DNA of 62,808 nt, counting the filler, from Stramenopiles sp. TOSAG23-2 (Eukaryota): NCBI GenBank assembly GCA_900128395.1. It is 11 parts of 11 records of this genome, joined end to end, with 100 filler letters (N's around TTAATTAATTAA, not from the genome) between each part and the next. Parts side by side here need not be neighbours in the genome. Positions count along the whole stretch, not along the records: positions 43,084 to 49,129 come from LT650538.1; 10 more parts are not named here. One strand, written 5' to 3'. The notes below the pieces were generated by a model that was given only the letters and a program-made list of their open reading frames with translations, was not told the origin of the DNA and made no database searches. The translations under genes and the position numbers were made by a program. Shown piece by piece: positions 5,124 to 61,597 of the stretch (position 1 is the first letter of the stretch; each line of letters begins with the position of its first letter).

Positions 5124-5729
5124 TTAGCGCAAGGTACCATCTTTATAATTCAATGTTGGTTTAATAATATCTTTAAATAGGCTACGTAAATCTTCATTTT
5201 GTTTTATTTTTGCATGTAACTGATCTGATTCTTCTTTAAGTTGTTTAATATATTCATCTCGTTTTTGTGTTAATTTTTTACGTACCATTAATTCATATTC
5301 TAATTGGTTCATTAAAAATTCATGCGGGTTGTTCTTTTCATTGACTTTGGTTAAATTTTTTGGTGCATTTTTAGTAAATAGTGTTTTACTAACTAATTCT
5401 ATTTTATCATATTCAGGTGTTTTAAAGTTATCACAAGATTTAATTTCATTTAATAATAAATTTTTCTCATATAATAAATTTTGTAATTGTAAATGTGCAG
5501 TATCAGCAACTTCTTTTTCCTTTGTGACATTCATTCTTTGTTCTTGTATAATTGAAAGCACATTGCGTGTTAATATTTTCAATGATATAATTTTTAATTG
5601 ACATTCTTGTAATAACTCTTGTAAAACAGCGTCATCTTGTTTATTTTCATAACTATTGGATATGGATTCTTTAAAAGTGGATAATTCAGTGGATAGCCTG
5701 GTAAATGGTAATATGGTAGTTGTTGCCAT
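5124..5729 (-). CDS. THOC5: THO complex subunit 5-like (FmiP N-terminal region only)
   Basis: Coiled coil with HLQLQNLLYEKNLLLNEIKSCDNFKT and HEFLMNQLEYELMVRKKL, matching the THOC5 N-terminus. Confidence 0.8.
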   Translation of the reverse strand: MATTTILPFTRLSTELSTFKESISNSYENKQDDAVLQELLQECQLKIISLKILTRNVLSIIQEQRMNVTKEKEVADTAHLQLQNLLYEKNLLLNEIKSCDNFKTPEYDKIELVSKTLFTKNAPKNLTKVNEKNNPHEFLMNQLEYELMVRKKLTQKRDEYIKQLKEESDQLHAKIKQNEDLRSLFKDIIKPTLNYKDGTLR

Positions 5730-6063: not shown

Positions 6064-6163
6064 NNNNNNNNNNNNNNNNNNNNNNNNNNNNNNNNNNNNN
6101 NNNNNNNTTAATTAATTAANNNNNNNNNNNNNNNNNNNNNNNNNNNNNNNNNNNNNNNNNNNN
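6064..6163. other. Artificial contig linker (N-run, TTAATTAATTAA, N-run)
   Basis: Identical 100-nt spacer with stops in all six frames; also at 12226-12325, 18383-18482, 24539-24638, 30688-30787, 36837-36936, 42984-43083, 49130-49229, 55275-55374 and 61420-61519. Confidence 0.99.
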
Positions 6164-12225: not shown

Positions 12226-12325
12226 NNNNNNNNNNNNNNNNNNNNNNNNNNNNNNNNNNNNNNNNNNNNTTAATTAATTAANNNNNNNNNNNNNNNNNNN
12301 NNNNNNNNNNNNNNNNNNNNNNNNN

Positions 12326-18327: not shown

Positions 18328-18382
18328 AAAAAATAGAAAAGTTTGAAGCATTAAGACCGAACGTAACTATATTAACGTTTCA
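18328..18382. other. Inverted duplicate of about 17896-17950 at the contig end (chimera/artefact)
   Basis: AAAATAGAAAAGTTTGAAGC...ACGTTTCA is the exact reverse complement of internal coding sequence. Confidence 0.85.
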
Positions 18383-19865
18383 NNNNNNNNNNNNNNNNNN
18401 NNNNNNNNNNNNNNNNNNNNNNNNNNTTAATTAATTAANNNNNNNNNNNNNNNNNNNNNNNNNNNNNNNNNNNNNNNNNNNNAATCTGCATTTTATATCC
18501 ATTTAGTATACAAATAAAATATACTTAAAAGTACCAAGTTTTATATTTTTGGCGAGTGCAATGAATACTTTGTCCACATTTTGCATTTTGATAGCAAGCA
18601 TAGGCTTGTTAGTATATGGTCATGAATACTTTATACACATTTGTTTCGAGAGGGTACCAAAATCGTACTTGATAGAATATATGGAATTTGATAGGTGCCA
18701 AGTTTACACCGAGTCTTCGCTTGCGCTCAGAATTCCTGATTATGAGCAGGCGAAGATGAGGGGATCGAGTAAGGCCAGCCCAGCCAGCAATCATCATCTG
18801 TGGCAATTGCACAATTGTGTGTTAATAATAAGAAATAAATTTGTAAAAATAATTGCATCAATAATATATATATATATATACATTATTCCATAACGAAAGT
18901 AAACAAAAGAATCAAACGTAGGAAAATGGAATTTAATGGTAATTACATTGCACATTATTTAGCAATTGCCTTGATTGGATTTGGGGTATTGTTACTTATT
19001 GCTGAACGGGTTTATGCGAAAGATAGAACAATAGTTGAAAAAAAAAGATAAATTATATATTATTTTGATGAAGAATATTTTAAAACTGAAAATGAATAGC
19101 AGCTGCAATATTGTATTTGTTGAGAATTTATTTCGGATCCATTAATATATACAACATTCGTACAAGATATAGTATATATATATAAATTTGGATTAGAAAA
19201 TGACTTAAGAAAAGGATTCTATAATGTAAGAATTATATAGTTTTAAATCATTTTAAATCTTTTTAAATTTGATCATTTATCATTGTTTAAGACTTAAGTA
19301 ATAAATTAAAAGCAATGCAAAACAATGAAAAAGAAAACGACTCGAAAAATATCGAAAATACTTTATCACATCTCCGAAGAACTTTTTATCCATATCTATT
19401 GTTATTTGACCTTTACTTATACAATAGTATGATAAGATGATGAATATTGTTGAGAAAAGAACTGGGATGCAATTACTAATAAGACTATTTTCATTAAATT
19501 AATATTTTAAAATTTAAATAATTATTTATTTAAATAAAATGATTTTATTATGATATAGATTATAAAAGAGTTCAATATGAAATGCATTTTAACAGAAAAT
19601 ACTTTTTAGTCTAATATATTGTGTGTATGGTACTCTCTTAATGAAAAATTATTGAAAATACTTTTGACATGAGATGCGTGTTATATGTTTTTCCTTGCTC
19701 GAAAAATATATGATGGATACACTGGATGGACATTTTCTAAAAAAGATGGCGATTTTGAACATAAAAAAAATTTATACAGTAATCCAGTAATATACTTTTA
19801 TTGTTATTTTTGGCAGACGACTTTTTTAAGATATATATTAAGGTATTTTCCAGACTTTTCGTATT

Positions 19866-20631: not shown

Positions 20632-23600
20632 ATGTATAAAAAGTATAACTACCTACAGGTTTTTCGAGTCAAATTTTTCCAATGTTTGTTACTCAACCTT
20701 GTCATCATCGTATGTAATTCAATAATAACAAGACAATATTTTGGCACTCGAACTACCGATGGTCCAAACGGTATTGTGTATTATAGTGTAAAACTAGTTA
20801 ACGTTGGCTACGCTAATGAGCTAAATAATAATCTTTTAAATACAAACAACTACATTTTAGGAGTATTGGGAGATAACAATAAAGCAGAAATACTTTTTTC
20901 AAGTAACGTGTATATACAAGGCACGACAACAAGTGTTGCCATTACCACTATAGAATATGCGCGAGACACAAATAGGCTATTATGTACATATGCGCAGGAC
21001 GGTGTGGCTAAATTTGGATCCGTAACGTTTACGGATACAAACAAAGCCGATAAGAAAATTGCATATATTACAGAATTGACTCCTTGGCTTCCAAGCCAAG
21101 GAGTACTTTTATCCAATTTAAACGTTAAAATAGGTGTCAGTAATTATTTTACACAACAACAAAGCACGAATAAACGTTCGGCATACATGTTTGCCGCATG
21201 GACTTCATTAGAAGAGGCGGATTCCTTGTGCTTGATAGAAATAAATACTACGAACAAATTTTCAATAAAAATAATGGACAATTTATTACCAAATGCAAAT
21301 GAGATAGCTGCCATAACGCGGCATGAGGCACGTGATATTCCCAGCGATATTATTGCAATGGATGTGGTTACTAAAGCGAGAAATGGTGAATGGGGATGTG
21401 CTACACTACAATTTGGTAAATATCCTAAATATCATGAGCGTAAGGATTTACATTTTTTACGAGCAAATGAAACAGGCGAAGTCTTTAAATTATTTGGCTC
21501 TGGTAGCTACTCCATGACAGACTTACAAGCTTCGATGAAAGTAAACAATGGAGTGGGGTTATTTTATACTATTAGTGAAAATGTGACAAGTTTAGGTAAG
21601 ATGAGTACTTTGTTAAAACCACGTTTATCGACAAATGCATTTAAGGAACCAGCAAATTGGGGATATGCGATTGAGGCGAAATTTGTTTTGCCAATAAAAA
21701 ATGTATCCGCGTTCAATGCAACCTTATTTAAACTTGCTCTTCTTGAAAGTACGCCAGCAAAAAAACTTTCAGATATAGTGGTACATGGTGCCGTTTTAAT
21801 CACATATACATTACCTGAAAGGAAATTAAATACCAAGACACTGCGACGGTTGGAGGCAAAAAAAAATGTGACTGGACTTCAAGTAAAGTTCACATTGAAT
21901 CTTGAAAAATCAACTCCAGGAAAAACATTAGAGAAAGTAGAAGAATTAACTGACGAAAGTTCTGTGTCTGCGAAAAATTTCCAAAGCGTCTTCCGCGCCT
22001 TGCCTACTGTGTCCATCATTGAAGAGATCGAACAAATAGTTGATGTTGGAGAAATCAAAATAATAGTGGATCAATGTGTATCTTCTAAAATTGGTAGCAT
22101 TCCAGAAGTTCCAGAAAAACTATTTTGGCCATTAAAACTTGATAAACAGTATAGTCCAGCACCATTTGATGCTGCGATTGATCAATCGCCTATGGTATAT
22201 GATATATTTGATACAACTGCATCGCTTGCAATTAAGCTTCGAACGCAATCGTTTGATATTTCTGTACTGGTAGTGGAACAAAAACACATTTCAGATAAAT
22301 ATGTACCTACTTGCAAATGTAACAATGGTATTTATCCGGAATGGGGAAATGATAAGTGTGACAATAAGAATATCAAAACTATATCAAAAGCCGAAATTAT
22401 TCAAAATGGCACATTTATAGATAGATTCAAGCTATTTGCGCACCATATTTTATGTGCCAATATCAATCGCTTAGAATATGGAAAGCATGGGGAATATTTA
22501 AGTAGTGTATCGGGCGGTACTAGTTGTAAAGGATACTTTGAAGAATTGTATCTAACAAATTTGAAGCCATCTACAACATATTATGTTTTTACGGTCGCAC
22601 ATGCGGGTTCACAATCGTCAAAACCATACACTACCGTGTTTCAAACTATGCATTATTCTCCTTCTGTACAATTTAGCATCAAGTCTATAACGTCCGATGG
22701 ATTCAGTATAGATGCAAAATATGATACAGAACTGCAACATCCAACCAGATTCATTTACATAGTAGTCGCACGTGAATCGCTCTCACAAACAAATTGTGAC
22801 TCCACTACATCTTGGCAAATGGCAAATCTCATATACAACAACATAGTCGATGGATTTAAAGCGTGCAATGAGAGTATATTATATAAAGGGGTGGAAGAAG
22901 TTCCACAATCGGGGCATAAACGAGCAAGAATTGTCAGCAAGGATTTAACAAACAAGCTTTACAAAAGGTTTAAATATGCGGCAAAATTAGCTGTCTTCGT
23001 GGTGGGGGAATACAATTATAGTCACGTAGATGATGGTTCGCATGGAACATATTCCCCTCGCTTCAGGAACTTTTTGCAACTTGCCCATCATAATATATCT
23101 TTGTCTTCTGCAACATTACCAGAAAATGCGTCTGCAACGATTGATGTCTATGCGCATTTAAGTTACAGGCCAGTTCCTGGTGAATTGTTTAATTTCACGT
23201 GCTTTTTGACTGGGTATATAACAAATGTCTACCTTGTGCATATCAATACACCATCAGCTAGTCAAAACAATAAGTGGAACCTGAAGAAACATTTGATCGC
23301 AAGATTATTCGCAGTACAGGATCAAAACAACACTGAACTAACACGACTTAGCTTTGCTGTGACATGTAAGAATCAAATTATGTATCCTCTCCATTCAGCA
23401 AAACTTGGACCATTAACTTATCACGATGAAATGTTCTCTTCGCAAATTGCTGAGACTCTTAACATTGTATGGCCTAATTGGTCTGATGCATACGTTTTGA
23501 AAACGGATCAACAAAGCAATTATCATTTTGAAGATGAAATCGAATCACTTACTACATACGGAAATCAAACTTTTATATTTAAACAAAACAACCCCACTTG

Positions 23601-24538
23601 GTCAGGACAAATGTACACTCCAAAAGTTCGTATAGAAATCGATGGCCTCGATACATGGGAAGTACAAGTATCACAGAATGGTCGTATTTTAAATTTTTCA
23701 ACACCATCATATCAACAATTATGTCCAACAAAACAAAATTGTACAAGAGATTTAGCATACAAAAAATTAGTTATTGCGAACCCATATGAAATCACAGAGC
23801 CAAGACTAGTTGGGGCGAGAGGTGGATTTTACGAAATAGATACGGTTTTTGTATATCAGCGATGCAGTAATGTTGAAGCGTTTACAGATGATCCCGACAT
23901 CTGTTGGGATAAATATAAAAGTTCCGAGAAATGTGCATTTGGCTCAGGAGATGAGTGTGTTAATTGTCCATCGCATGCAATATGTCCAGGGGGCAATCGT
24001 GCATGGCCACACGAACGTTATTGGAATGTGGATGATTACAGTGATCAAGTTGTGCGATGCAGTGCGCCAAGTTTGAAAAGATGCATGGTTCACAACAGAA
24101 AAAGTAGAAGTGTAATATGTGGTCCAACATATGACAATAGTAGTTATGCGTGTGAAAAATGTGCTGTTAATCATTATCCTCTATGGAGACAATGTGTGAA
24201 ATGCCCAGAATTTTATGAAGAAAAAACATCGATATTTCCATCATTTGTACTTACTATTTCGTATCTCGTGGCCTTTATGTTTGCCTTAAATGTTTTTATA
24301 TATGTATCTCTAATTGGTGTGGGTGGCTCAATTCTTTCGTCGTGGTATTTGACGAAGCGATTTCTTTTAGAAATGGTGTTTTACGTGCAGTTAATTGCGG
24401 TGGCAACAAAACCTATTTACCCGCTGCAAACAACATACGCTACAGCCGTATCTTACACCTTGGATGCCATTATGATAGATTGGGACATTTTTATGCCTCT
24501 ATCATGCTTTGAGGAAAATCCGCCTTTATTTTATTCTG
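20632..24538 (+). CDS. Large cell-surface membrane protein (signal, FN3-like, Cys-rich repeats, start of a multi-TM region); 3' truncated
   Basis: N-terminal hydrophobic stretch; LTNLKPSTTYYVFTVA (FN3-like); C..CP..A.CPGG...W and CEKC..NHY...C.KCP repeats; hydrophobic helices run into the gap. Confidence 0.75.
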
Positions 24539-24658
24539 NNNNNNNNNNNNNNNNNNNNNNNNNNNNNNNNNNNNNNNNNNNNTTAATTAATTAANNNNNN
24601 NNNNNNNNNNNNNNNNNNNNNNNNNNNNNNNNNNNNNNCAGTAATATATATATATACA

Positions 24659-36836: not shown

Positions 36837-36936
36837 NNNNNNNNNNNNNNNNNNNNNNNNNNNNNNNNNNNNNNNNNNNNTTAATTAATTAANNNNNNNN
36901 NNNNNNNNNNNNNNNNNNNNNNNNNNNNNNNNNNNN

Positions 36937-42706: not shown

Positions 42707-43111
42707 GTTTGATCACTAATTTTTTTTTTTCTTTTGTTACTTCACTTTTGAAATTAATAGAGTCCTTCTTCAAAATGATTTATTTTATATATTCTAATAT
42801 ATATATATATATACAATTGGCTCTCTCTTTCATCAATTATTCATCTATATATATCGGATACACCTTTAACTGTCGTCTAGAGATGTGGTGGGTGGGTTTT
42901 GGGGTTTTTTTCTAGTCAAGTATACGGTTTGATAGAAAAACAAGCTAATAAGAATACAAAATATTTTAAATTTTAATAGCATTNNNNNNNNNNNNNNNNN
43001 NNNNNNNNNNNNNNNNNNNNNNNNNNNTTAATTAATTAANNNNNNNNNNNNNNNNNNNNNNNNNNNNNNNNNNNNNNNNNNNNGTGTGTTTTTTATTTCT
43101 TTTTTCAAAAT

Positions 43112-46100
43112 TTAAATACTCTTCGCGTAATCTTTTTTGTGAATATAATTCAAATCTAGCTTATCATTCTCCAACAAAAGACAAACGCTATCGTAATTGC
43201 CATTTAAACACGCTAACCAAATAGGGGTTGCCCCATCAAAACGAACACGATTTACCAATTCGTCTGCGTTTTCTTCTTCCAACATTTTTTTCAATTCTTT
43301 TGTGTAATCATTGGCCGAGGCACAAAAAATGGTGACATTAGCACCAACTGCATAGAGAAGATCCGCAATAGACTTCAAGTTATTTAAACTTGCATTAAAC
43401 ATTGGTGAATTGCCTTTGTTGTCTGGTATATTTATTCCCTTATTGTCTGGTATATTTGAGTCTATGTTTACGTCTAGTTTATCACAGGAAAGAAGAAGCG
43501 TTGTAACAACTTCTTTCTTCTTTTCCTCACTACATTTTTCACTACATACCACTGCATTCAGAGGAGTACGTCCATCTTTGTCTTGTATATTCACATTCAC
43601 ACCATTGTCAAGAAGTTGTGTTACTATTTCCACATGTCCGTTTTCACAAGCATGATGCAGCGGCGTTCGTCCCTTATTATACATTTTCGGATCTGATAAT
43701 AATCTGGAAAATTCATTCATTTCAACAGCGTCACTTATGTCTTTAGCTATATTTGGCTGAGCGAGGAGAAGCTGTACAACTTCAGTATGGCCATATATAC
43801 AAGCAGCATGCAGTGGTGCTGAACCGTAATTATTTAAACTATTTAAATCATCTTTATGTTGCTTAAGGAAATGTTCCACGGTTCTTACTTTACCTTCTTT
43901 ACATGCATCATACAAACCATAGATTTTTCCATTATCAAATGGCATTCCTGGCATTATATCTGCTAAGCTCTCGCTAATTTCTTTTGCTTTTTCGGCAAGT
44001 TGTTGTTTCAATTCTTCGTCTTGAATCCCATAAAGTTTTGCAGCAGTTTCAACACTTGCATCAACAAAAGGATTTCCTCGCTCATTTGTATCTGCTTTGC
44101 CCTTTTTCGTACTGAGTAAAGAAAGAATATGCATACGCTGGTTTTCAAGGGCTACTTTCTTGGCTACACTCAGGATTGTCCCTTGTTTGCAAGTTTTGCA
44201 GCAATAAACTTCATTTAAATTTGCTCCTTGCTGTAGAAGAAAATTTACAATGTCTTCACGACCATGTTTAATAGCAGCTACCAAAGGTTTTCCATTATTC
44301 ACAGAATCTTTCTGCATTAGCTGTTTTACAACCCCAAAATGGCCATATGCACAGGCAACGTGAAGAGGTGTCTCACCATTTTCATTTTCAGTTTTCCAAT
44401 TGGCATTTTTTTCTAGAAGCAATTTTACAACTTTATCGTGCCCAAATTTGGCAGCTGCATGCAAGGGTGTGGATTTGCTTTTTGGAACCGAAATATTAAC
44501 ATCAACACTTTTTTGCAGTAGTCGCTCCACTACTGCTAAATTACCACTCTTGCACGCATAAAAAAGAGCTGTTTTACCTTCATCGTCAGCTATATTCACA
44601 TTAATTTTATCGTTGTCAAGAAGGCACATTATAGAATTTTCATTGGTATGACGTTTTGCTTCTATGATGGACGTTATTAGGGGGGTAGACCCATATTTAT
44701 TAGCAGCATTTACATCTACATTCAAGTCTAGAAGAAGAAAACGCACAACATTGACTTGTCCATACGCACATGCAACATGCAAACAAGAAAAACCATGATA
44801 ATCAGAAAAATTAGTAACACGGGACCCAAGTTTTTGTAAACTTTTTACTACATCAAGATGACCGAAACCACAAGCATAATAAATAAAATTGCGCTGGTTG
44901 TTTTCGCAGAATACCATCGATTTTAGAGTATCGTTTTTCAATTTTAGTTCTAAATTTTTAACAGCAAAGTCGTTGAAGATACCATCCCTTAATGTATGCA
45001 TTGCCTCTTCTGTTTCTCCTTGTTCAATTTTACATAACGATTGTGTCAATAAAGTTTCAACTATGATCCTTTTCCACTCGTTCTCGTTAGAAAAATTTAA
45101 GTTTTTGTGAAATTCTTCTCTAATAAATGCATGAAGCAAATCATGAAGCCCCACGTCAATTTTCCCACCGTCATTCATAAAAGTTTGCTTTTCTTCATCA
45201 GTCATACATTTTGCACAAATATCATAACCACATTTTTTACACCCAATTATACGACTATTTGGATGTATATAGCTCCCACAATCATTACAATTGCGTCCTT
45301 CGTAAATACAGTAAGGTTTTAATTTATCACATTGACCAGTACATTTGTGGTTTTTAGTTCTCTTGTTTGCAATAGGTTTACTATTTTCGTCTTCTTCTTT
45401 CTTCCCTATTGTTCGGGGCCTATTTTCTAACAAGAATACTGCTTCAAGCTTATCCCAAACAAGATTTACATCTTTTATGCGGCCCCAGGACCAAAGAATC
45501 TGTAATGCCTCCTGCGTAATAATTGCACTCACAGGAAATATGCCTAACATTAAATACTTTAAATAAATTTCTTCGCCTAGCAAATCTTTATCTACGCCTG
45601 CACTAATAGCGAGATGCACAGAAGCTTTGTAATCTATGTCAAAACGGGGGCGACCACATTCAGTTGTAGTAAATACTTCAGGATTCCCTTCCAACCTCTT
45701 TTTTAATTCAGCCCAAAGATCTGGTCTATCTTTTTTTTTGCCCAAAAGCTGCTTTGCGATACCACCTGCCACTTTGACTAAAATAGGAATGTACCAACAT
45801 ATTTTTACAACAGCAAACGCATTATTGCAGTCACCATTTGCGTCAATCTGAATGGCTTCAGTTGCTAAACCAGCACTGTTGAGAAGTAGTTTTACGCCTT
45901 CTTCACGAGACAATTTATTTACTTCAATTAGCGTTTCTTCAGGGCAAATATTTTTGTCACGAGTCGTCATAAGAATTGAAAAATTATGATCAATTTCTCT
46001 TATTCTATTTATCACTGCAACCTGTTCTTTATAAATCAAATTGTCAACAATCAATAATAGCGGGCCATTGTTTCTAATATTTTTGTCGAAAATGTTTTTC

Positions 46101-49100
46101 AAATCACTAACAAAATCCTCTTCTACTGCATGTTCATCTTTTTTCATCATACCTAAAGCACGTGTTGCAAGGCGTCTTAGAATCGTTAACGATTTATCAT
46201 CTTTTTGTATTGTAATCCACGCAATACGATTCCCAAATGTCTTCTTTATCGTTTCATTTCGTGCTATTTCTGATGCAGTTACGGTCTTTCCAACTCCACC
46301 TGGGCCATATATAGTTACACTTCTTTTTTTTAAAATAGAGGAAGCAATTTTATTTATCAGGTTTTCTCGTGATAAAAAATATGATGTTCGCTTTGGTATA
46401 TCATTTTCGGGGTTATTGTAATCAATATGGATCCAATCCCCCGGTAATTGTTTCGTATTTTCGTTTCTTCCGGCCATCTCAACATTATAGTCTATGCCAA
46501 GATTGTTTAAAGTCATATTGAACTTTTCAAGGTTCTTCAAAGTAAGATGAGAATTTGCCGAATAATGAAATCTTGCCACATGTTGTAAACCATCTTCAAG
46601 CTTTTTGAGATAGTCTACTATATATAATGCCTCTTCCTTGTTTTCCGTTTTCTTATTCATATTCGTGACCTTTTTAACGATTGTTCGACAAAGACGAACA
46701 AGACGAGCTTCAAATGCAGACGTTTCCTCGCTCTTTTGAGATTTTTCCAACCGCTTTTTGATATAATGTGATGCTACCCAAGTAGCCACATGTACGGCAA
46801 TACCAACGATTGGTAAAGTAGCACTAAGAACACCACAGACTAGACGAAAACCCTTCGCATTGACACTATTATCAATGTCTTTTAATTTGGCACTTATTTC
46901 ATTAAAGGGATCCTTCGAATGGGTCGAGTGATCACCATGACGGGAAAGTAAGTGTGGGGCTTCACGCATAACCTCATCAATCTTCTCAAATAATTCCCCA
47001 CCTACTTCCAAAGTGCTTGAAACAGCATGGGCTGTATGTGTTATATGTTCTGCATGATTTAAATCATGATTTGGATGATGAGGCTCATGATTAGGCCTTT
47101 GCGACAACGCAAAGCAATTGGGATCCTTGCTCGCATCCATAGAACTACTTTCAGAGTCAATAAAGTGTTTTTTAATGTTAAGAAAATCTTCTTTGTTTTT
47201 TGTGCGGACACAGAAATTTTCAGTGAAGTTTATGTCATAGTAATTGTTCTCCTCTGAAAACTTTGGATACTCTTTTGTTCTAAAAGCGATTCTGCTGAGC
47301 TCAACTGTTTTCTCTTTTTGGTTGTACAACCAGTTTGGTATTGTTACAAGTGGTTTGTTAGTGTATATAAAGTGGCCACCTTCGATACGTATTGTGTCCA
47401 AGGTCTTCCACCTAACAGCATTAAACCAACCCTTTTCACGGCGCTCGAAGTTTGCAGCACTTTCAAAATTAATTTGAATAAGTCGAAGCATGTGTCCTGC
47501 ATAAAGTGACTGAAGGGCATCATGCAACTGCGTAGAGCCCCCCCCTCCTTTTGCTGCCGGATTCTTAATAACTTCATTACCGTTATCATTTTCGTTCAAT
47601 AGAGGTTTTGGTTTTAAAGATACCCCAAAATAATGATTTTCAAATCGATGCGCAAGAATAATCGGGTCACGTTCTTCCAAGTCTATATTCCACGCAGGTG
47701 GTAGGTGACGTGAGGTCCAGCCATGTCGACTGGAACAGACCATAATCGGATGCTTGAAAAATACCATTGCGGCTAAAAGCATTCTATCACCGCACCAAGT
47801 TTCATAACTTTTTAAGTTAATTATGTGTTCTTCCCACATTTTAGCTTTCTCACTTTTTGATTTATTTTGGTCAATTGCCATGTTGTAAAAAGTATTTGGA
47901 TCTCCATGTTCTGAATCGTCTATTCGCTTGTCTTTAAACTCTTCAACTATTTGTACAAGCTTCTCCCGTAGTACAATAGCACACGCTTTACAATTTTTGC
48001 TAAATGCAGTTTCCGATTCGCATTTATTACACAGCGGACATCCACTGATATTACCATAGTGACAACTAAGTTTTAATGCATGTAATAAGCATGAGCCATC
48101 TTTCTCAGTCTCTTCTTTTACTAAGCCATATATTTTAAGCCTTTCATCAATATCAATGACAAAATTACTTTTGCTTTCGAGTTTTTGTGCTTTAGGATTG
48201 TCTTCAATCAACTTAGATTTGATGTGCTCAAATAACTTGGGTACAAAATAAGACTGCTTAGGAACCCATACAAGAAATTCATTGAAATCTTTAAATTCAT
48301 AAAAACGCTTCTCACCCGAAAGCACCTTTTTGCTTAAATGAAGTTGGAGATAGATACCATCATCTTCCCCAGACTTAAATATAGCATACCCTCTCAATTG
48401 TTTCTTTCTACTTCCATCAACAATAATTTCAACATCCAGTTCTACCTGAGTTTCTTCACTCTTTGATAATTTAATGGTTATTTGAATCTTCTCTTTTAGT
48501 TCTCCCAAGATGCTAAAACATACATCATCTTCTTTTCTGACGTCAAACTTTGGAAATTCTACGAAACACTTGGTGATTTCCCACTTTAATAGTTTTTCGC
48601 CAGCCAAGAAGTCTGGCAAATCACTTTGATCAACTTTTTCTAGGGCAGCTTTTAAGCTCTCCCTTGAAGAAATACATTTTTTCGTCCAGTCTTGTTTTAT
48701 ACATAGTGCCTGTTTAAGCGTATAATTTTGAAATATACACCGAAATATTAAATGCCATAAAGTAAGCGTCTTTTCATCATCCGCCCGTAAATAAAGTTTC
48801 TCTGCTTCAGTATTGTTTTGGGCATTATTTTTTTGCGTTAGTCGCTGCATAAGTATTTTCAATTCGAAGTTAGGGTAATCATATGATAAATCCTCTTCTT
48901 CTTTTCCCCCTTCTTCTTTTTCCATCTGGTAAGTATTCCTTACAACGTTATTTGTTTCAGGGATAGAATAGTTTATACGCCATGGGTTTTCATTCTTGGA
49001 ATACATCACTCGGAAATGCCTTTCATTCCAACTTCCTATCCACTTCGACTTCTTTTTCAGTTTCCCTTCGTAAACTAAAATATCCTCGTCGTAATCTGTC

Positions 49101-49102
49101 AT
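43112..49102 (-). CDS. NLR-like STAND NTPase: PH - OTU - helical bundle - NB-ARC (with ZZ-like finger) - ankyrin repeats
   Basis: PH: YEGKLKKKSKWIGSWNERHF..LYLRADDE..W. OTU: DGSCLLHAL, WCGD, ENHY. P-loop GPGGVGKT at 46306-46283; Walker B LLIVDN; ILMTTRD; WYIP at the GLPL position; LHDLLH. More than ten ankyrin-like repeats follow. Confidence 0.9.
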   Translation of the reverse strand: MTDYDEDILVYEGKLKKKSKWIGSWNERHFRVMYSKNENPWRINYSIPETNNVVRNTYQMEKEEGGKEEEDLSYDYPNFELKILMQRLTQKNNAQNNTEAEKLYLRADDEKTLTLWHLIFRCIFQNYTLKQALCIKQDWTKKCISSRESLKAALEKVDQSDLPDFLAGEKLLKWEITKCFVEFPKFDVRKEDDVCFSILGELKEKIQITIKLSKSEETQVELDVEIIVDGSRKKQLRGYAIFKSGEDDGIYLQLHLSKKVLSGEKRFYEFKDFNEFLVWVPKQSYFVPKLFEHIKSKLIEDNPKAQKLESKSNFVIDIDERLKIYGLVKEETEKDGSCLLHALKLSCHYGNISGCPLCNKCESETAFSKNCKACAIVLREKLVQIVEEFKDKRIDDSEHGDPNTFYNMAIDQNKSKSEKAKMWEEHIINLKSYETWCGDRMLLAAMVFFKHPIMVCSSRHGWTSRHLPPAWNIDLEERDPIILAHRFENHYFGVSLKPKPLLNENDNGNEVIKNPAAKGGGGSTQLHDALQSLYAGHMLRLIQINFESAANFERREKGWFNAVRWKTLDTIRIEGGHFIYTNKPLVTIPNWLYNQKEKTVELSRIAFRTKEYPKFSEENNYYDINFTENFCVRTKNKEDFLNIKKHFIDSESSSMDASKDPNCFALSQRPNHEPHHPNHDLNHAEHITHTAHAVSSTLEVGGELFEKIDEVMREAPHLLSRHGDHSTHSKDPFNEISAKLKDIDNSVNAKGFRLVCGVLSATLPIVGIAVHVATWVASHYIKKRLEKSQKSEETSAFEARLVRLCRTIVKKVTNMNKKTENKEEALYIVDYLKKLEDGLQHVARFHYSANSHLTLKNLEKFNMTLNNLGIDYNVEMAGRNENTKQLPGDWIHIDYNNPENDIPKRTSYFLSRENLINKIASSILKKRSVTIYGPGGVGKTVTASEIARNETIKKTFGNRIAWITIQKDDKSLTILRRLATRALGMMKKDEHAVEEDFVSDLKNIFDKNIRNNGPLLLIVDNLIYKEQVAVINRIREIDHNFSILMTTRDKNICPEETLIEVNKLSREEGVKLLLNSAGLATEAIQIDANGDCNNAFAVVKICWYIPILVKVAGGIAKQLLGKKKDRPDLWAELKKRLEGNPEVFTTTECGRPRFDIDYKASVHLAISAGVDKDLLGEEIYLKYLMLGIFPVSAIITQEALQILWSWGRIKDVNLVWDKLEAVFLLENRPRTIGKKEEDENSKPIANKRTKNHKCTGQCDKLKPYCIYEGRNCNDCGSYIHPNSRIIGCKKCGYDICAKCMTDEEKQTFMNDGGKIDVGLHDLLHAFIREEFHKNLNFSNENEWKRIIVETLLTQSLCKIEQGETEEAMHTLRDGIFNDFAVKNLELKLKNDTLKSMVFCENNQRNFIYYACGFGHLDVVKSLQKLGSRVTNFSDYHGFSCLHVACAYGQVNVVRFLLLDLNVDVNAANKYGSTPLITSIIEAKRHTNENSIMCLLDNDKINVNIADDEGKTALFYACKSGNLAVVERLLQKSVDVNISVPKSKSTPLHAAAKFGHDKVVKLLLEKNANWKTENENGETPLHVACAYGHFGVVKQLMQKDSVNNGKPLVAAIKHGREDIVNFLLQQGANLNEVYCCKTCKQGTILSVAKKVALENQRMHILSLLSTKKGKADTNERGNPFVDASVETAAKLYGIQDEELKQQLAEKAKEISESLADIMPGMPFDNGKIYGLYDACKEGKVRTVEHFLKQHKDDLNSLNNYGSAPLHAACIYGHTEVVQLLLAQPNIAKDISDAVEMNEFSRLLSDPKMYNKGRTPLHHACENGHVEIVTQLLDNGVNVNIQDKDGRTPLNAVVCSEKCSEEKKKEVVTTLLLSCDKLDVNIDSNIPDNKGINIPDNKGNSPMFNASLNNLKSIADLLYAVGANVTIFCASANDYTKELKKMLEEENADELVNRVRFDGATPIWLACLNGNYDSVCLLLENDKLDLNYIHKKDYAKSI

Positions 49103-49229
49103 GCTGATAATAAATAATTAAATATAAATNNNNNNNNNNNNNNNNNNNNNNNNNNNNNNNNNNNNNNNNNNNNTTAATTAATTAANNNNNNNNNNNNNNN
49201 NNNNNNNNNNNNNNNNNNNNNNNNNNNNN

Positions 49230-51518
49230 ACAACAATGCCAATGCTATTTCAAATAAAAATAATAATAGTCAACGCGTAGTAATAAATCACCAACCGGTA
49301 ATCATGCAACAACCTGGCCCACCTTTAAATTGGGTACCACCATTCCCTGGTTGGCAATGGGGTATGCCATTACCACCAAATTATCCACCACCACCACCTC
49401 ATATTGTACAACAACAAGAACAATTAAGGCAAGCACAAATTATGCAACATCAAGCTATGTTAGCACAACAACAGTAAGTAATTATTATTATTATTATCTA
49501 TCTATCTTACTACATGAATCGATTATATATATATATATATATATATACTAACAGTTATATATATATATATATATATACATTTATGCATACACACATGTAG
49601 ACAACAAATGCAACAACAACAACAACAGCAGCAACAACAACAAAATGCACAAGTGAATGCTACTACTCCGCCTCCCCCTACTACTACTGCTAAGGTTACT
49701 GCTGCTAGTACTACGCCGCAACCAACACGTAATGTATCCGATCCATGGAAAGCTTCACAATCTTCGAAAAAAAAATCTATATTAGATATACAAAAAGAAC
49801 AAGAGTTAGAACCAAAAACAAAAAAATCTATATTTAATGATGGCAGTAATAATAATAATAATAAGAATAAGAAGAAGAATAATGATATTAAAAAAAAGAA
49901 GTTCAATAACAACAACATCAACAACAAAAATAGTAAACGTAAAGATGATTCTACAGATTATAAAGATCCATATCCAAGAGGAATTTTTTGGCATTTAGCT
50001 GGTAAATTTCCTAGAATTGATTTTAATCCTGAATGTATGGATTATAGTGAATTGAATTTAATTATGAAAATGCAATTTTTCCCATTACGTTCAAATGATG
50101 TAAGACGTGATGATTATTATTTCGATGAAGCATTAGCACGGCATCGTGCTAGATTAGTGAGTGGAATGCAACCACAACCATTAGGTGCATGTGAAGGAAT
50201 GGGGGAAGGATTAGCCGTTGTGCCAGGTTTAGGTGGTAGACCAGGTGGAAGTGCATCAAAAGCATTATCTGCTGGTGAAAAAGAAGCTGTACGTACATTG
50301 CGTTTAAAAGAAAAAGCTACGAAATGGCAACAATCTAATAAATCATTAGGACGATTTCAAAAATCAAGTGTACGACGTCCAAGAGAATTAATGGATTTAT
50401 CTACTACTACTAGTAGTAGTAATAGTACGAGCAAAGAAGAGGAAAATGGCGGTGCTACCGAAGCAGAAGAAGAAGAAGAAGAAGAGGTCAAAACAACAAA
50501 TGGAGATGATGGTGGTAAGAAAAATGACGAAGCCGGAAAAACAACAACAACAACAGGTCATGATGCATTAAAAAACAAAGCAGCTAAAGGTAAAATGACA
50601 GTAGAAAAATCACAAAAAGTAGCAAAAGGTATTGTACATGAGAAATGTTTAGCAGCACCACGTTGGAGTTTACGAAAAAGCATTGATGAAGGGTTTGATT
50701 CTATTTTAAGGTTGGAAGATTTATCATTAGCATTAGATCAAGGAACCATGACAACAATGACAAGTGATGATATTGTTGCATCATCTTCTACTACTAGTAA
50801 GGATGATAATAAGACGACGACGACGAAGAAGAAGAAAGCAAATGAAGGAGGAAAAAAAAATAGTACAAATAAAAAAAATACAAAAGTATTGACACCAGTA
50901 TTACCAACAGAACAAGCATTGTTAGATCAACGTCAAATTGCATTAGATACATTGACAAAAGTGATTTGTATCGTGAAGAAAAAAAACAAAAATGGTAATG
51001 ATGATTACCATTTAGATGTTGCAAGGATGAAAGACATGGTGAAAATCAATAAATGTAGAAAATTACTTTGTAGAGCATTGCAATGGCTTGATCAGCAAAA
51101 ATCAAGAGTCTTTTTAATAGGGATCATGCCAATATTGCAAGATTTCATCGGTAGAGGTTCACCGGAAGCATTGGCAAATGCAACGACGTTACGAGATAAA
51201 AAAGAAAAGTGGTGGGATAGTATGTTGGATGAACGTTTATCGCAAGCTATCTGCAATTGCATTGTCATTGCAATTGGTGGCGGTCCAAATGGCACACAAG
51301 TAGATCCAACATTACCAATTGAATGTTTAAAAGAATTTTTAAATCGTGGTAATAAAAATGTCAAGCAAACATTGGAAAAACGTGGCGTATCCATTGTAAT
51401 ACAAGCAATTGTAATGCATGGGCAAACGTTTATGCAACAATCACAATTTTTCGGAAATGTCAATTTGCAACAACAATGGGTACAAGAATATAATAAATTT
51501 GTACAAATCATGTCGTGA
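49230..51518 (+). CDS. PAT1: PAT1/PATL1 mRNA decapping activator, 5' truncated, with an intron
   Basis: Pro/Gln-rich exon, intron 49474..49600 (GTAAGT..TACTAAC..TAG) in frame; M...E...I.KMQ...L.S......DDYYF and SLGRFQKSSVRRPRELMDL motifs; helical C-terminal domain. Confidence 0.8.
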
Positions 51519-52640: not shown

Positions 52641-55274
52641 TCAATCCTCCTCAACACTTGAACTTAAATCACTTATCCCATCAGAATCATCATCATCCTC
52701 ATCGCTATCAAAATCACTTAAACCATCACTACTTGATATATCAGACATCATTCCTTCTAATTCTTGATTGATTTTTGTTTGCAATGTTTCTTTATTATCC
52801 CCAATATCATCTAATGACATGGATGATAATTCACTAATGCTACTATCATTTGGTTTAAAGTCATTATTATTATTATTACCACCACCACTTTTTTTCATCA
52901 TCCCATCTAATTCATTTTTAATAGTACTTTTTAATTCTTCTTTATCTTCTACTTTATTAATATCATTCACACTTCCACGACTTAATAAATCCTCATCAAA
53001 ATTTTTCAATTCTTCTTGTACTTTAGAACGTAATACTTCTTGCTTTTTTTCATCAACTGTAGTAGTCGTAGTAGTAGTAGTAGACGTAGATTTAGATGTA
53101 GTATCGGTAATTGATGCACGTTGTTTTCGACCACGGTGAATAGCTTGAATTTTAACAGCTGCTTCTGTTTGTTCTTTTTTCTCCTGTACTTCTTTTCTTG
53201 CTTTTCTACCACGTTGTATTGCAGCTATTTTATTTACTGCCACGGTTTGTTCTTTTTTTTCTTGTATTTCTTTTCTTGCTTTTCTACCACGTTGTATTGC
53301 AGCAATTTTATTTACTGCCACCGTTTGTTCTTTTTTCTCCTGTGCCATTACTCTGGACTTTCTACCACGTTGTATAGCTTGTATTTTAACTGCAGCATTT
53401 TCTAACTGTTCATCATCTTCATCAATACTTGGGGGCATATTTTCATCACCACCATTGTTGTTGTTGTCAAACATGTCGTCGTCGTCTTCTTCTTCTTCTT
53501 CTTCTTCATCGTCTTCCTCCTCTTCATCGTCATCTGGTGCCATAGCTTCATCACCACCAATATCGCCAAATGGATCATCATCGTCATCATCATCTTCGTC
53601 TACTTCCTCCTCATCCATTATACTTGCTCTTCTTTCTTCCATTTCCTTTCTAGCTTTTCTACCACGTTGTATAGCAGCTATTTTATTTACTGCTTCAGTT
53701 TGCTCTTTTTTTTCTTGTACTTCTTTTCTTGCTTTTCTTCCACGTTGTATTGCAGCTATTTTATTTACTGCCACTGTTTGTTCTTTTTTTTCTTGCATTT
53801 CTTTTCTTGCTTTTCTTCCACGTTGTATTGCAGCAATTTTATTTACTGCCACTGTTTGTTCTCTTTCTTCTTCCTTTAATATTTGTTGTTTTTTTCGATG
53901 TACTTCTGCTCTGCTTTTTCTACCACGATGAATAGCAGCTATTTTCGTTGCAGCTTTGGCTTGTTCTTCCAATTCAATTTCTAATTCTTGACGTCGTTGT
54001 TTTTCTTGAAGTCTTTTCTCTTCTGCTACTTGTTTTTCTTGTATCAATTGTTGATATTTATATTCTATTTCTTGTAATTTTGGTGTTATAATTTGCAATT
54101 CTTCCTGCAATTGACGAGCATTATTTTCCGCAACATTCATTTTAATCATCAATCCTTTACTGTTAGTTTTTTCTCGTTGTAATTTTATATTCAAACTTTT
54201 GATTTCACGTACATGTTTTTCTTTATATTCATTTAATTGTGATAATAACGCTTGGTTTTGTTGCATTAATAAATTTAATTGATTTTTACCATCAGTTGAA
54301 CCTTGTGATAAACTACTTGTCACACTGCTACTTGCTAATGATTTATTTGATAATTGGCGTTGGAAACTTGGTGGCAATGCACTGTTTTTTTTTGCTAGCT
54401 TTGATTTATTTTTATTATTCTTATTATTGCTTGAATAATTAACAGGTTCAACATTTGCAATTTCATCACTTTTTACATTTCCATTATTATTATTGTCATT
54501 ATTATTATTAATGTTATTTGCTTTATTATCTATTACCATTGGCATTGGTTTATTTGTGACAATAGACATGCCTAAAATAGAAAATATTTCATTTAATATG
54601 GTTAAATATACTTTCCAAGGAATATGTAATTGATTTTCATCTATTTGTATTTTCTTCCCGATACTATTTCTAGATATACCTGAATCATCATCATCATCAA
54701 TATTGGCATCATTATTATTATTGATATCATCATCACCATCGTTATTATTATTGCTACTATTTTTCTTCTTTTTTTTTCTATTGTTTAATATAAATGCATC
54801 GATTGCACATGTTTTAAAAATATCTACAATATTTCTACTTTTGATATTTTTAAAATATGTTGTTGTATTCATAATATTTTTAATAAATCGGTTTGTACAA
54901 ATATTTAAAAGAACTTGTTGATCTTCATGTTTATGTGAATTGACTTTATGATGTGCTATTGAATAATATGTACGTTTTGATAAAGCTAAACTATCGAAAA
55001 TCGTACGATGTGTTTTATTTGCATCTTGAATATTGTTATTCAATCCAATTGGACTATTAATTTCTAAATATTGCATGTTGATACGTAATTCACATTGGCG
55101 TTGCCCATTTTCATCACATAATGGATAATATGTATCCGTAATATGACCTTGATTAAAAATGAATGGAAATAATGGTATCATGGTTGTCCCCAAACTAACA
55201 TGATCATGTGCTGCTGCTGTTGCTTCACCACCATTACCATTTGGATCTGTAGTTACACCCCACAATTCGATGTA
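52641..55274 (-). CDS. Coiled-coil protein with eight IQ-like motifs and acidic tracts; begins with a possible C2 end; 5' truncated
   Basis: 26-aa repeat EQTVAVNKIAAIQRGRKARKExQEKK in two blocks of four IQ-like motifs; LGTTMIPL..YYPLCD..ELRINMQY resembles the last strands of a C2 domain. Confidence 0.8.
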   Translation of the reverse strand, partial: YIELWGVTTDPNGNGGEATAAAHDHVSLGTTMIPLFPFIFNQGHITDTYYPLCDENGQRQCELRINMQYLEINSPIGLNNNIQDANKTHRTIFDSLALSKRTYYSIAHHKVNSHKHEDQQVLLNICTNRFIKNIMNTTTYFKNIKSRNIVDIFKTCAIDAFILNNRKKKKKNSSNNNNDGDDDINNNNDANIDDDDDSGISRNSIGKKIQIDENQLHIPWKVYLTILNEIFSILGMSIVTNKPMPMVIDNKANNINNNNDNNNNGNVKSDEIANVEPVNYSSNNKNNKNKSKLAKKNSALPPSFQRQLSNKSLASSSVTSSLSQGSTDGKNQLNLLMQQNQALLSQLNEYKEKHVREIKSLNIKLQREKTNSKGLMIKMNVAENNARQLQEELQIITPKLQEIEYKYQQLIQEKQVAEEKRLQEKQRRQELEIELEEQAKAATKIAAIHRGRKSRAEVHRKKQQILKEEEREQTVAVNKIAAIQRGRKARKEMQEKKEQTVAVNKIAAIQRGRKARKEVQEKKEQTEAVNKIAAIQRGRKARKEMEERRASIMDEEEVDEDDDDDDDPFGDIGGDEAMAPDDDEEEEDDEEEEEEEDDDDMFDNNNNGGDENMPPSIDEDDEQLENAAVKIQAIQRGRKSRVMAQEKKEQTVAVNKIAAIQRGRKARKEIQEKKEQTVAVNKIAAIQRGRKARKEVQEKKEQTEAAVKIQAIHRGRKQRASITDTTSKSTSTTTTTTTTVDEKKQEVLRSKVQEELKNFDEDLLSRGSVNDINKVEDKEELKSTIKNELDGMMKKSGGGNNNNNDFKPNDSSISELSSMSLDDIGDNKETLQTKINQELEGMMSDISSSDGLSDFDSDEDDDDSDGISDLSSSVEED

Positions 55275-55488
55275 NNNNNNNNNNNNNNNNNNNNNNNNNN
55301 NNNNNNNNNNNNNNNNNNTTAATTAATTAANNNNNNNNNNNNNNNNNNNNNNNNNNNNNNNNNNNNNNNNNNNNAAAGTGCATCCGTGAAAGTTGCCGTG
55401 AATAGACATAGATTCAGAAAAAAAGAAGTGAAAAACAATATGCATCACCATCACATGTTTAGTCATGTAATTATCCTATAAACGTTTT

Positions 55489-56598
55489 TTGCGTTTAAAA
55501 CAATTAAAAAATAAACAATTTTTTTGTCCGATTGATCGTATGAAAATTGTAGAAGAGAAAACAAATACGTTGACATCCGATGCGGGGGTAGATCATTATC
55601 AAAAAGCAATTATGGAGGTTGAACAAGTAGGAGCTCATATAGGCATGTTTGCTGGAATACAAGATCAAAAAACAACTTTGCGACCGACATTAACTGCATC
55701 GTATGAATTTATTAATCCAGAGAAAATTCCATTTCGACCACCGATGTCACATTTTTTCTCTGATATAGATGGCCGTGCAGATTATGGTGTTTTAGGAACC
55801 CCTGGAGGTGATCTTGGTGCGTTTTTAATCATGCTTAGTGCAATAGAACGTAGTCAAGAATCATTTAAATCCTTACTGTCGTTTGAAAATGTATATGATT
55901 ATTTCCAACGTTTTTTGAATGACATGGTGCAATATGGAAAAATGCATTTTGCCATGGTAATGGATGAAACATCGTTACAACGTTTAGCCACGCTTGCTGA
56001 AGTTATCGATGCATTGCATCCTGTATCTGCTGAAGGGGCGGATAGAGTTGTTGCTGAAAGTGTCAATGCAGAAGCGATTGGTAGTGAACATTTGCGATAC
56101 ATAATGAGTGGCAAGGGTTACAAGATAAGACCAAAATTATGTGGATATATTATACAAGCATTTTGGAAAATATATTTTGATCATTCACATCCATTAAAGC
56201 CTAGATTAATATTACCAATATTACAAGGTGATCATAATGAAAAAGGTATCATCGTCTCGTATAAAAAGGTCTTTCATCCTCAATGCAATGGCCAAGCTCC
56301 ATTGATCGTCCCACATGTCGGTACATCTCAATATTATATATATCATTTAGGTGCAACTGAAAAGTTTTTTGAAGGTTTAGCAACATGGGCCTCCAAATCA
56401 ATTGGTGGAAATACTGCTATAATGAAGAAAGGAAATGGAATAGGAGATGATGGTTTACCCTTTGATTACAGTTCAACGTTGTATAAGGACATGCAAATTA
56501 TTGCTGATGGGGCATGGAAACGCACAGTCAATTTGATTAGTAATCATGGTGAATTGGAAAAATTCACAGTATCGTTGAGTAGTTATGAGGGGTGGTAA
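55489..56598 (+). CDS. Protein resembling the CxDGR/GTPGGD carbonic-anhydrase-like family, with putative metal ligands substituted; 5' end uncertain
   Basis: FSDIDGRAD..LGTPGGDLGAF, MVMDE, IGSEHL, LQGDHNE motifs. Confidence 0.5.
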   Translation: MRLKQLKNKQFFCPIDRMKIVEEKTNTLTSDAGVDHYQKAIMEVEQVGAHIGMFAGIQDQKTTLRPTLTASYEFINPEKIPFRPPMSHFFSDIDGRADYGVLGTPGGDLGAFLIMLSAIERSQESFKSLLSFENVYDYFQRFLNDMVQYGKMHFAMVMDETSLQRLATLAEVIDALHPVSAEGADRVVAESVNAEAIGSEHLRYIMSGKGYKIRPKLCGYIIQAFWKIYFDHSHPLKPRLILPILQGDHNEKGIIVSYKKVFHPQCNGQAPLIVPHVGTSQYYIYHLGATEKFFEGLATWASKSIGGNTAIMKKGNGIGDDGLPFDYSSTLYKDMQIIADGAWKRTVNLISNHGELEKFTVSLSSYEGW

Positions 56599-61419: not shown

Positions 61420-61597
61420 NNNNNNNNNNNNNNNNNNNNNNNNNNNNNNNNNNNNNNNNNNNNTTAATTAATTAANNNNNNNNNNNNNNNNNNNNNNNNN
61501 NNNNNNNNNNNNNNNNNNNTGGTAAAGTCACAATCTTTTACCTTTAAACCTAAGTGTAATTTTCTAGTTAATTTAATTGTAATTTTTTTTTGCAAAA

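Follow-up and report, generated by a model that had tools for sequence, protein, structure and literature searches.

A 1996-residue protein of Stramenopiles sp. TOSAG23-2 combining an OTU domain, an Apaf-1-type NB-ARC module and ankyrin repeats: a predicted STAND receptor with a putative deubiquitinase output

We have analyzed a window of 62,808 bases from the draft genome of Stramenopiles sp. TOSAG23-2 (GenBank assembly GCA_900128395.1), one contig of which (LT650538.1) is almost completely filled by a single open reading frame (ORF) for a protein of 1996 amino acid residues. This protein combines an OTU cysteine-protease domain, an NB-ARC module and two arrays of ankyrin repeats in one chain; the motifs that define these domains are intact, and pieces of the gene occur in environmental DNA and RNA libraries. 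The interpretation we favor, and to which we would give about an even chance of being correct, is that this is a nuclear, intron-free protist gene for an Apaf-1-type STAND ATPase, which upon binding of a ligand would oligomerize and thereby deploy a putative OTU deubiquitinase.

The open reading frame and its domain layout

The ORF begins with ATG and ends with TAA. It is the sole gene of its contig, in which only 27 nt precede the start codon and 28 nt follow the stop, and the stop-to-stop frame exceeds the ATG-started frame by just 5 codons. Its G+C content is approximately 36%, that of the window approximately 30%. An open frame of 1996 codons cannot be due to chance, as stops would make up about 7% of random codons at the composition of the ORF (an estimate). 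The ORF had been proposed in a first-pass annotation made from the sequence alone, and the ORF listing recovers it at the proposed position, on the minus strand. The motifs quoted there are likewise all found at the residues claimed: DGSC at 335 (with Cys338), WCGD at 436 and ENHY at 488 (with His490) in the OTU domain, and GPGGVGKT at 933, LLIVDN at 1016, TTRD at 1046 and LHD at 1319 in the NB-ARC module. The assignment of the OTU, NB-ARC and ankyrin parts, their order, the intactness of the catalytic and P-loop motifs and the logic of an effector followed by a STAND switch and repeats have all held up, and the product has the tripartite layout of an N-terminal output region, a central nucleotide-binding and oligomerization (NOD) region and C-terminal repeats (Table 1).

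Table 1. Features of the window and of the ORF product; positions count along the whole window
Feature	Position	Strand	Residues or length	Basis or remarks
Spacers between contigs	6064-6163, 12226-12325, 18383-18482, 24539-24638, 30688-30787, 36837-36936, 42984-43083, 49130-49229, 55275-55374, 61420-61519			N44-TTAATTAATTAA-N44, n=10
Contig carrying the ORF	43084..49129		6046 bp	N44-TTAATTAATTAA-N44 spacer at both ends
Whole ORF	43112..49102	minus	1996 aa	ATG start, TAA stop
PH-like region (tentative)	48752..49075	minus	aa 10-117	Sub-threshold Pfam PH
Region of no known family	48197..48703	minus	aa 134-302	Predicted strands at aa 186-281, pLDDT 45-60
OTU cysteine-protease domain	47606..48196	minus	aa 303-499	Relatives, family profile, fold
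Region of no known family	47060..47605	minus	aa 500-681	pLDDT 30-50; His-rich stretch from about aa 661
Helical region, adjoining NB-ARC upstream	46502..47059	minus	aa 682-867	AlphaFold long helices, pLDDT 50-68
NB-ARC (nucleotide-binding, helical and putative winged-helix parts)	45416..46390	minus	aa 905-1229	Pfam, Apaf-1 alignment
Cys-rich zinc-finger-like insert	45203..45346	minus	aa 1253-1300	Between winged-helix part and LHD
Ankyrin array 1, about 7 repeats	44183..44917	minus	aa 1396-1640	Pfam
Ankyrin array 2, about 6-7 repeats	43115..43924	minus	aa 1727-1996	Pfam; last 5 codons and stop perhaps not the natural end

The OTU domain

The OTU assignment rests on relatives, on a family profile and on the predicted fold, the Pfam OTU family itself (PF02338) giving no match to the whole protein or to its sub-regions even at E<=10. 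A phmmer search of residues 1-900 against the sequences of the Protein Data Bank (PDB) returned just three matches at the level of chance. An exhaustive phmmer search of the same residues against 1.84 billion cluster representatives yielded 10 matches at E<=0.001 (1.2e-7 to 5.5e-4), all of which align to residues 303-499 and to no other part of the query. These relatives are proteins of 123-607 residues, none of them large and modular, and the Pfam OTU family is present in every one (E<=0.01), in 8 of the 10 above the gathering score. In their alignment with the query Asp335, Cys338 and His490 occupy conserved columns: the catalytic Cys is kept in 8 of the 8 relatives that cover its position, and the His of the ExHY motif is invariant in all 11 sequences. 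The codons of Cys338 and His490 lie at 48089-48091 and 47633-47635, respectively, and Asp335 stands three residues before the Cys. A Cys-rich insert of about 20 residues after the catalytic helix, at residues 355-374 (47981-48040), is found in the query only and in none of the relatives.

A profile built from the query and these relatives matches 10 OTU sequences of solved structure at E<0.001. A20 ranks first (1.8e-8), followed by OTUD3, OTUD2 and OTUD7B (E up to 2e-6), OTUD5 and the OTU domains of nairoviruses; as the profile includes the relatives of the query, membership is thereby established for the family cluster and not for the query alone. In the alignment to A20 the DGxC motif falls on DGNC and HY on HF, whose Cys and His we take to be the catalytic residues of A20.

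The first-pass annotation had also called for a model of the OTU site, and the model has the OTU fold. AlphaFold2, run on residues 1-905 with an alignment of these 10 relatives, was confident only at residues 315-500, where the predicted local distance difference test (pLDDT) scores are 80-96. In a structural search of the all-against-representatives type (VIA-align), ranks 1-23 were taken by OTU-type deubiquitinases, with OTUD3 (4bou_A) first (Z 15.9, root-mean-square deviation 2.7, 141 of 141 residues aligned), and with yeast Otu2 (Z 15.6), OTUD1 (Z 14.9) and the crystal structure of a Wolbachia OTU domain (Z 13.6) among the further matches. OTUD3, OTUD1 and yeast Otu2 share the DGxC and HY motifs with the query, but are only 17-22% identical to it, and differ in that here the domain carries the Cys-rich insert of about 20 residues and is embedded in a STAND protein. 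Judging from its motifs and its modeled fold, residues 303-499 are a genuine OTU domain that looks catalytically competent, and we predict that it is a deubiquitinase.

The NB-ARC switch and the ankyrin arrays

Profile searches leave the NB-ARC and ankyrin assignments in no doubt. The Pfam NB-ARC family matches residues 914-1138 with E 7.2e-19 (68.5 bits, the cut-off being 23.5). The closest sequences of solved structure are six of Apaf-1 (E 2.3e-11 to 3.5e-10), followed by five plant NLR sequences (E 0.002-0.01), which makes 11 solved sequences at E<=0.01. The best alignment pairs residues 899-1206 with residues 116-406 of Apaf-1 and brings the P-loop (Walker A, GPGGVGKT, encoded at 46283-46306), Walker B and TTRD motifs into register. 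A weak match to the Dark_WHD family covers residues 1184-1229 (Pfam, E 0.0096). The LHD motif (codons 45140-45148) lies beyond the end of the Apaf-1 alignment, with an insert of about 80 residues in between. There are 9 Cys within residues 1231-1312, and the core of the insert (residues 1253-1300) weakly resembles cross-brace zinc fingers (FYVE, E 0.011; RNF4 RING, in a single-domain comparison, E 0.06-0.08).

The ankyrin repeats are recognized by the Ank_2 family with E 7e-71 in 7-8 stretches (Pfam) and form two arrays about 85 residues apart, with no family in between. Among other profile collections, NCBIfam gave just ankyrin-driven sub-threshold matches to Dot/Icm ankyrin effectors, plus FxSxx_TPR, and PADLOC gave one weak P-loop match (mad8, E 2e-4). 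A short frame on another contig (8389-8898, plus strand), situated between an FMO-like gene and ATG7, shows ankyrin similarity to the ORF (49% identity over 37 residues, E 3e-5); it is the only other ankyrin-like sequence of the window.

The remaining N-terminal region

The very N-terminus had been annotated as a PH domain. When residues 1-133 were scanned alone, the Pfam PH family (PF00169) matched along nearly the full profile (positions 2-97 of 105; E 0.0068), but the score of 17.4 bits is below the cut-off of 25.1, and AlphaFold leaves residues 1-97 without secondary structure (pLDDT about 30). A PH-like head is thus only tentatively assigned, and since the match is weak and the region is not folded in the model, the accompanying suggestion of a membrane-recruited sensor is poorly founded. 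A search for a second, internal copy of the PH-like head was negative. For residues 134-302 there is no Pfam match at E<=10 and no relative in the exhaustive search; more generally, neither these residues nor residues 500-905 have a relative in any search or a significant profile match.

The helical bundle proposed between the OTU domain and the NB-ARC module corresponds to residues 682-867, where long helices are indeed predicted, albeit with low confidence, and where the structural matches are generic helical hairpins (Z 8-9), uninformative for helices. Within this region residues 752-777 (46772-46849) form a hydrophobic helix that is the most hydrophobic segment of the protein (Kyte-Doolittle peak 2.13). 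This leads to an alternative view of the same protein in the same host, in which the helical module would be the executioner, either membrane-active or an adaptor, and the OTU and PH-like parts would serve as regulators, as bait for a pathogen factor or as a brake on self-ubiquitination. Besides its hydrophobic helix and predicted long helices, the module lies directly before the NB-ARC, in the place taken by CC, HeLo or CARD domains in other NLR-type proteins, and mammalian OTU enzymes are reported to work on NLRP3 in trans. Set against this are the low model confidence (pLDDT 50-68), the generic nature of the structural matches and the sub-threshold level of the profile hints (Pfam SNaCT13, E 0.024; holin-like, E 0.057), and we consider a helical executioner unlikely. 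In the interpretation we favor, the output is composite, with the OTU domain as its putative enzymatic part.

Occurrence in environmental libraries

Twenty of the 22 public sequencing runs listed hold part of the contig, one of them with 98% of the sampled words and two marine metagenomes with 34% and 28%; six of the matching runs are RNA libraries, two of which are polyA-selected. Four runs were aligned to the contig: the marine metagenomes X2 and X3, the polyA metatranscriptome X12 and another metatranscriptome, X6. Runs outside these four with shares of 0.10-0.19 are given no weight here. Pieces at >=99% identity (11 of 13 in X2, 10 of 12 in X3, 5 of 6 in X12 and 5 of 6 in X6) tile the ankyrin, NB-ARC, helical, OTU-Cys and N-terminal parts. 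The first-pass annotation had named a chimeric join within the ORF as grounds for abandoning its proposal. No joints were found in the ORF contig across the four runs; the junction between the helical region and the P-loop (about 46339) is bridged by X2 record 13, which is DNA, and by X12 record 5, which is RNA, and X2 record 14 (48023-48462) runs continuously from the region before the OTU domain into the Cys motif. On the other hand, as discussed below, parts of the ORF are left without cover.

Some environmental contigs agree with the ORF at high identity up to a point and then diverge from it. One X2 contig leaves the window sequence at 43130 and translates onward as a further ankyrin repeat, which replaces the last five codons and the stop, and the natural protein may therefore be longer at its C-terminus. 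A second X2 contig diverges at 46339; its sequence upstream of the P-loop is a different one and its frame stays open, which would fit a paralogue or a variant with another N-terminal region. In X3, the sequence departing at 45551 begins with GT and that at 43300 ends with AG, both with in-frame stops; these could be introns in a variant copy, with the reservation that such ends make up 1 of 5 and 1 of 4 ends of the right polarity, which is within chance. The X2 ends at 45087 and 45121 flank a 35-nt match that is probably spurious, and the X3 ends at 48891 and 48923 fall within a low-complexity stretch coding for Glu and Lys. For the divergences at 43130, 45551, 46339, 46644 and 43300, paralogues, strain variants or introns are all possible explanations; variant contigs of this kind are compatible with diversification of the gene.

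Searches for relatives of the whole protein

A word-based search with residues 1-900 among proteins of 1097-3493 residues yielded none among 4686 candidates, and with residues 880-1400, in the same size range, one plant NLR-like protein (E 2.2e-8). No relative emerged from motif scans of metagenome contigs, nor from two motif scans of the genomes of 185,579 prokaryotic species, the latter reaching close relatives or one motif only. Among 2.9 million viral contigs there was no match to the whole protein, to the OTU alignment or to two of the OTU relatives, and tblastn detected none in 50,697 phage records; tblastn against plasmids returned only NB-ARC proteins of Acaryochloris, 20-22% identical.

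The host of the gene

The window is composed of draft-assembly contigs in order of decreasing size (6062, 6057, 6056, 6049, 6049, 6047, 6046, 6045 and 6045 bp for the pieces between spacers), which the 10 spacers separate and which are chained by these linkers with stops in six frames; adjacency across a spacer therefore says nothing of genomic neighborhood. An additional gap of 14 N lies at 31889-31902.

The eukaryotic origin assumed by the first-pass annotation is plausible, given the genes for ATG7, THOC5, a GH20 hexosaminidase and an aspartyl protease on other contigs, the codon usage and the polyA cover. The correlation of relative synonymous codon usage (RSCU) between the ORF and the 18 other ORFs of the window is 0.877, those ORFs themselves ranging from 0.826 to 0.971. 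In view of this composition, of the cover in polyA RNA and of the eukaryotic genes on the other contigs, a nuclear gene is the most likely source of the contig.

Among those other genes, ATG7 is full-length in a single ORF (9049-11280, minus strand). It is 99% identical to proteins from metagenome assemblies (a cluster of 45 members), the next relatives, likewise unnamed or metagenomic proteins, being 52% and 51% identical and the named plant, animal and fungal ATG7 proteins about 30-44%; the source is therefore an environmentally common but unsampled eukaryote. An ORF of 201 residues (5124-5729, minus strand) covers only positions 2-144 of the 362 of the THOC5 profile, probably because an intron interrupts the gene or because it is truncated, so that the genome is not wholly intron-free. 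Several genes of the window are single long ORFs. The other contigs also encode the GH20 hexosaminidase, a lipoate ligase, a thioredoxin-domain protein and an EcKL-type kinase-like protein. A 1906-residue ORF (12609-18329, minus strand) nearly fills its contig, and a eukaryotic aspartyl-protease domain at residues 1171-1333 is its sole Pfam match, leaving about 1700 residues without a family. Five ORFs have no Pfam family at E<=0.001: 76-2880, 20632-24594 and 49608-51518 (plus strand; 934, 1320 and 636 residues), 52641-55265 (minus strand; 874 residues) and 55489-56598 (plus strand; 369 residues); the one of 1320 residues runs into the spacer at 24539 and is hence cut by the contig end. One contig carries both a 679-residue TerD-domain protein (24745-26784, plus strand) and a 457-residue protein of the LtrA family (27838-29211, minus strand), which Pfam describes as bacterial. 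Scans of the window with tRNA and Rfam models gave no matches, and scans for sigma-70 promoters and terminators gave fewer than expected from shuffled sequence.

Two other sources of the contig have to be weighed. The contig may belong to a giant virus (Nucleocytoviricota) infecting the protist: giant viruses are AT-rich, have many ankyrin proteins, make polyadenylated mRNAs and often encode OTU-like proteases. The closest OTU relatives are of metagenomic origin and small, one of them being fused to a GIY-YIG domain and one named after a marine size fraction of 0.22-0.45 micrometre, and the polyA RNA cover is equally compatible with a virus. But the searches of 2.9 million viral contigs gave no match, the codon usage of the ORF is inside the range of the eukaryotic contigs, and to our knowledge no NB-ARC protein has been described in giant viruses, a point on which no search was made. 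All in all, we regard a viral origin as very unlikely.

The second possibility is that the contig belongs to an AT-rich intracellular bacterium of the protist, and that the protein is a secreted effector acting on host ubiquitin and cell death, as in Wolbachia or Amoebophilus. There is a precedent in Wolbachia for the combination of OTU, a Dark/Apaf-1-like region and NB-ARC (PMC6133264), effector domains of Amoebophilus include Otu peptidases and STAND NTPases according to passages of PMC3482391, the contig has no neighboring genes, and a Wolbachia OTU structure is among the fold matches. Against it speak the ORF pieces in a polyA-selected metatranscriptome, the lack of large modular proteins among the 10 nearest OTU relatives, the failure of the prokaryotic, phage and plasmid searches described above to find more than the distant NB-ARC proteins of Acaryochloris, the lack of a Shine-Dalgarno-like purine run (as judged by eye) in the 27 nt that precede the start codon, and the other contigs of the window, which are all eukaryotic. 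We therefore hold a bacterial effector to be distinctly unlikely, although somewhat less so than a viral protein, and retain a nuclear gene of the protist as the preferred source.

Observations that weigh against the preferred interpretation

Several observations run counter to the view of a transcribed nuclear gene for a functional receptor. The Walker B motif reads LLIVDN, with Asp-Asn where Apaf-1 has two Asp, and because the second acidic residue is thus replaced by Asn, the hydrolysis of ATP may be impaired. The ankyrin repeats contain no tandem repeats of high identity at the DNA level, unlike many fungal NLR arrays described in the main text of PMC4986451. The ORF is alone on its contig and has no physical tie to the protist genome; the G+C content at its third codon positions (0.296) is at the upper edge of the range in the window (0.154-0.295), and codon usage cannot separate one AT-rich genome from another. 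That it is present in an RNA library is no proof that it is transcribed. There is no paralogue within the 62.8-kb window and no relative of the full architecture in the searches of proteins and of metagenome, viral and prokaryote contigs, and consequently there is no sign of the family expansion typical of immune receptors. Finally, 4 of 30 bins of the ORF contig (45306-45507 and 47326-47931) are left uncovered by all four aligned runs, which is not evidence of absence, and nine loose ends, where environmental contigs depart from the window, fall inside the ORF.

The last two points would also suit a chimera of assembly or amplification, i.e. two unrelated coding pieces joined in frame within an uncovered stretch, the more so as X2 at 46339 and X3 at 45551 are among the loose ends and the best-matching run, X1, is possibly the source of the window itself. 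Yet the frame is open over 1996 codons through every junction; the OTU relatives are continuous over residues 303-499, so that a join at 47606-47931 would have to cut through a single domain; the junction between the helical region and the NB-ARC is bridged by DNA and RNA contigs of two independent runs; and X2 record 14 links the region before the OTU domain to the Cys motif, no joints having been found. A chimera is in our opinion highly improbable, and we continue on the assumption of one genuine, contiguous gene of the protist.

Comparison with known systems

The closest analogs of the switch are Apaf-1, Dark and CED-4, the NB-ARC clade of STAND NTPases, with which the ORF product shares the P-loop, the Asp of Walker B, TTRD and, judging from a weak match, a putative winged-helix part, as well as the order of N-terminal output, NB-ARC and C-terminal repeat sensor. 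Apaf-1 differs in that its output is a CARD and its sensor is built of WD40 repeats, whereas here we find an OTU domain with modules of no known family and ankyrin repeats; the Cys-rich insert of about 80 residues before LHD and the Asn in place of the second acidic residue of Walker B are further differences. Fungal NLR-like proteins, as described in the main text of the survey by Dyrka et al. (2014; PMC4986451), share the tripartite organization, with an enzymatic or cell-death N-terminus, NACHT or NB-ARC and ANK, TPR or WD repeats, the combination of NB-ARC with ANK being a small fraction of them. In the main text of that survey neither "OTU" nor "ubiquitin" occurs once. The fungal arrays differ from the present one in their DNA-level similarity, and the host here is no fungus as far as can be judged from ATG7, whose named relatives are only about 30-44% identical.

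The nearest parallel in composition is bacterial. Gillespie et al. (2018; PMC6133264) described several large OTU proteins of Wolbachia with a region modeled on the Drosophila Apaf-1-related killer, which also have Pfam NB-ARC, repeats and insertions inside the OTU domain. They have in common with the protein studied here the joining of OTU, an Apaf-1-like NB-ARC and repeats in one large chain, and even an insertion inside the OTU domain, but they are encoded by bacteria or prophages and presumed to be toxins aimed at arthropod hosts (PMC6133264), whereas the present gene is apparently eukaryotic and its product has PH-like, helical and zinc-finger-like parts. The Wolbachia proteins were absent among the matches of our general searches, in which no direct sequence comparison with them was made. 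In addition, passages of Bordenstein and Bordenstein (2016; PMC5062602) place NB-ARC, OTU and ankyrin among the eukaryote-like domains of phage WO, and those of Zhang et al. (2012; PMC3482391) place Otu peptidases and STAND NTPases among the effector domains of Amoebophilus. The claim of the first-pass annotation that the domain combination is undescribed is thus too strong. No paper came up in a full-text search that combined NACHT, NB-ARC, OTU and deubiquitinase, and those listed for "OTU domain" with "NACHT" (15 of 27), judging from titles and abstracts, concern separate deubiquitinases that act on NLRP3 or are unrelated.

Among bacterial STAND defense proteins with protease partners, the plasmid NB-ARC protein of Acaryochloris (about 21% identity, E 9e-8) likewise couples the switch to a peptidase effector. 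There the NB-ARC gene adjoins CHAT and TIR genes and the protease is caspase-like and encoded by a separate gene, while here the OTU domain is fused into the same chain and the host is eukaryotic.

Possible function and mechanism

Sensing by the ankyrin repeats, oligomerization, activation of the OTU domain by proximity, its substrate and the biological role of the protein are what we infer from analogy with better known systems. The two C-terminal ankyrin arrays are likely to be the ligand-sensing and autoinhibitory part, and the N-terminal region would be a composite output, made up of the tentative PH-like head, the OTU domain and the helical module with its hydrophobic helix beside the NB-ARC. 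By analogy to Apaf-1, to plant and fungal NLRs and to the bacterial STAND defense proteins, binding of a ligand to the ankyrin arrays would release the NB-ARC, which would then exchange its nucleotide and oligomerize. The oligomer would cluster the N-terminal regions, so that the OTU domain could strip ubiquitin, or a ubiquitin-like modifier, from targets in its vicinity. The most likely setting of such an activity would be a pathway of defense or cell death. That oligomerization switches on deubiquitination, and that the purpose is antiviral immunity, both suggested in the first-pass annotation, are purely inferential.

It is tempting to go further and to regard the protein as an NLR-type receptor whose direct output is to strip ubiquitin or a ubiquitin-like mark, and which would edit the ubiquitin code itself upon ligand binding and not call on a caspase, a pore or an NADase. 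This bolder scenario, which we deem rather unlikely as a whole, would assign a protist-specific immune logic to the receptor, with its approximately 600 N-terminal residues that have no relative in the 1.84 billion representatives searched. The OTU/Apaf-1-like proteins of Wolbachia would in that case be mimics of such host receptors or copies captured from a host.

With an uncultured organism and a gene that is so far a singleton, what can be learned without a full assembly is limited. The OTU domain, being small and having clear catalytic residues, lends itself to direct expression and assay. If the gene is truly that of a protist, a deubiquitinase joins the outputs that are wired to the STAND/NLR switches of Eukaryota, and NB-ARC-ankyrin receptors extend to an unsampled marine lineage. 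For the OTU/Apaf-1-like proteins of Wolbachia there would then be a counterpart in a eukaryote, which bears on the origin of such symbiont toxins.

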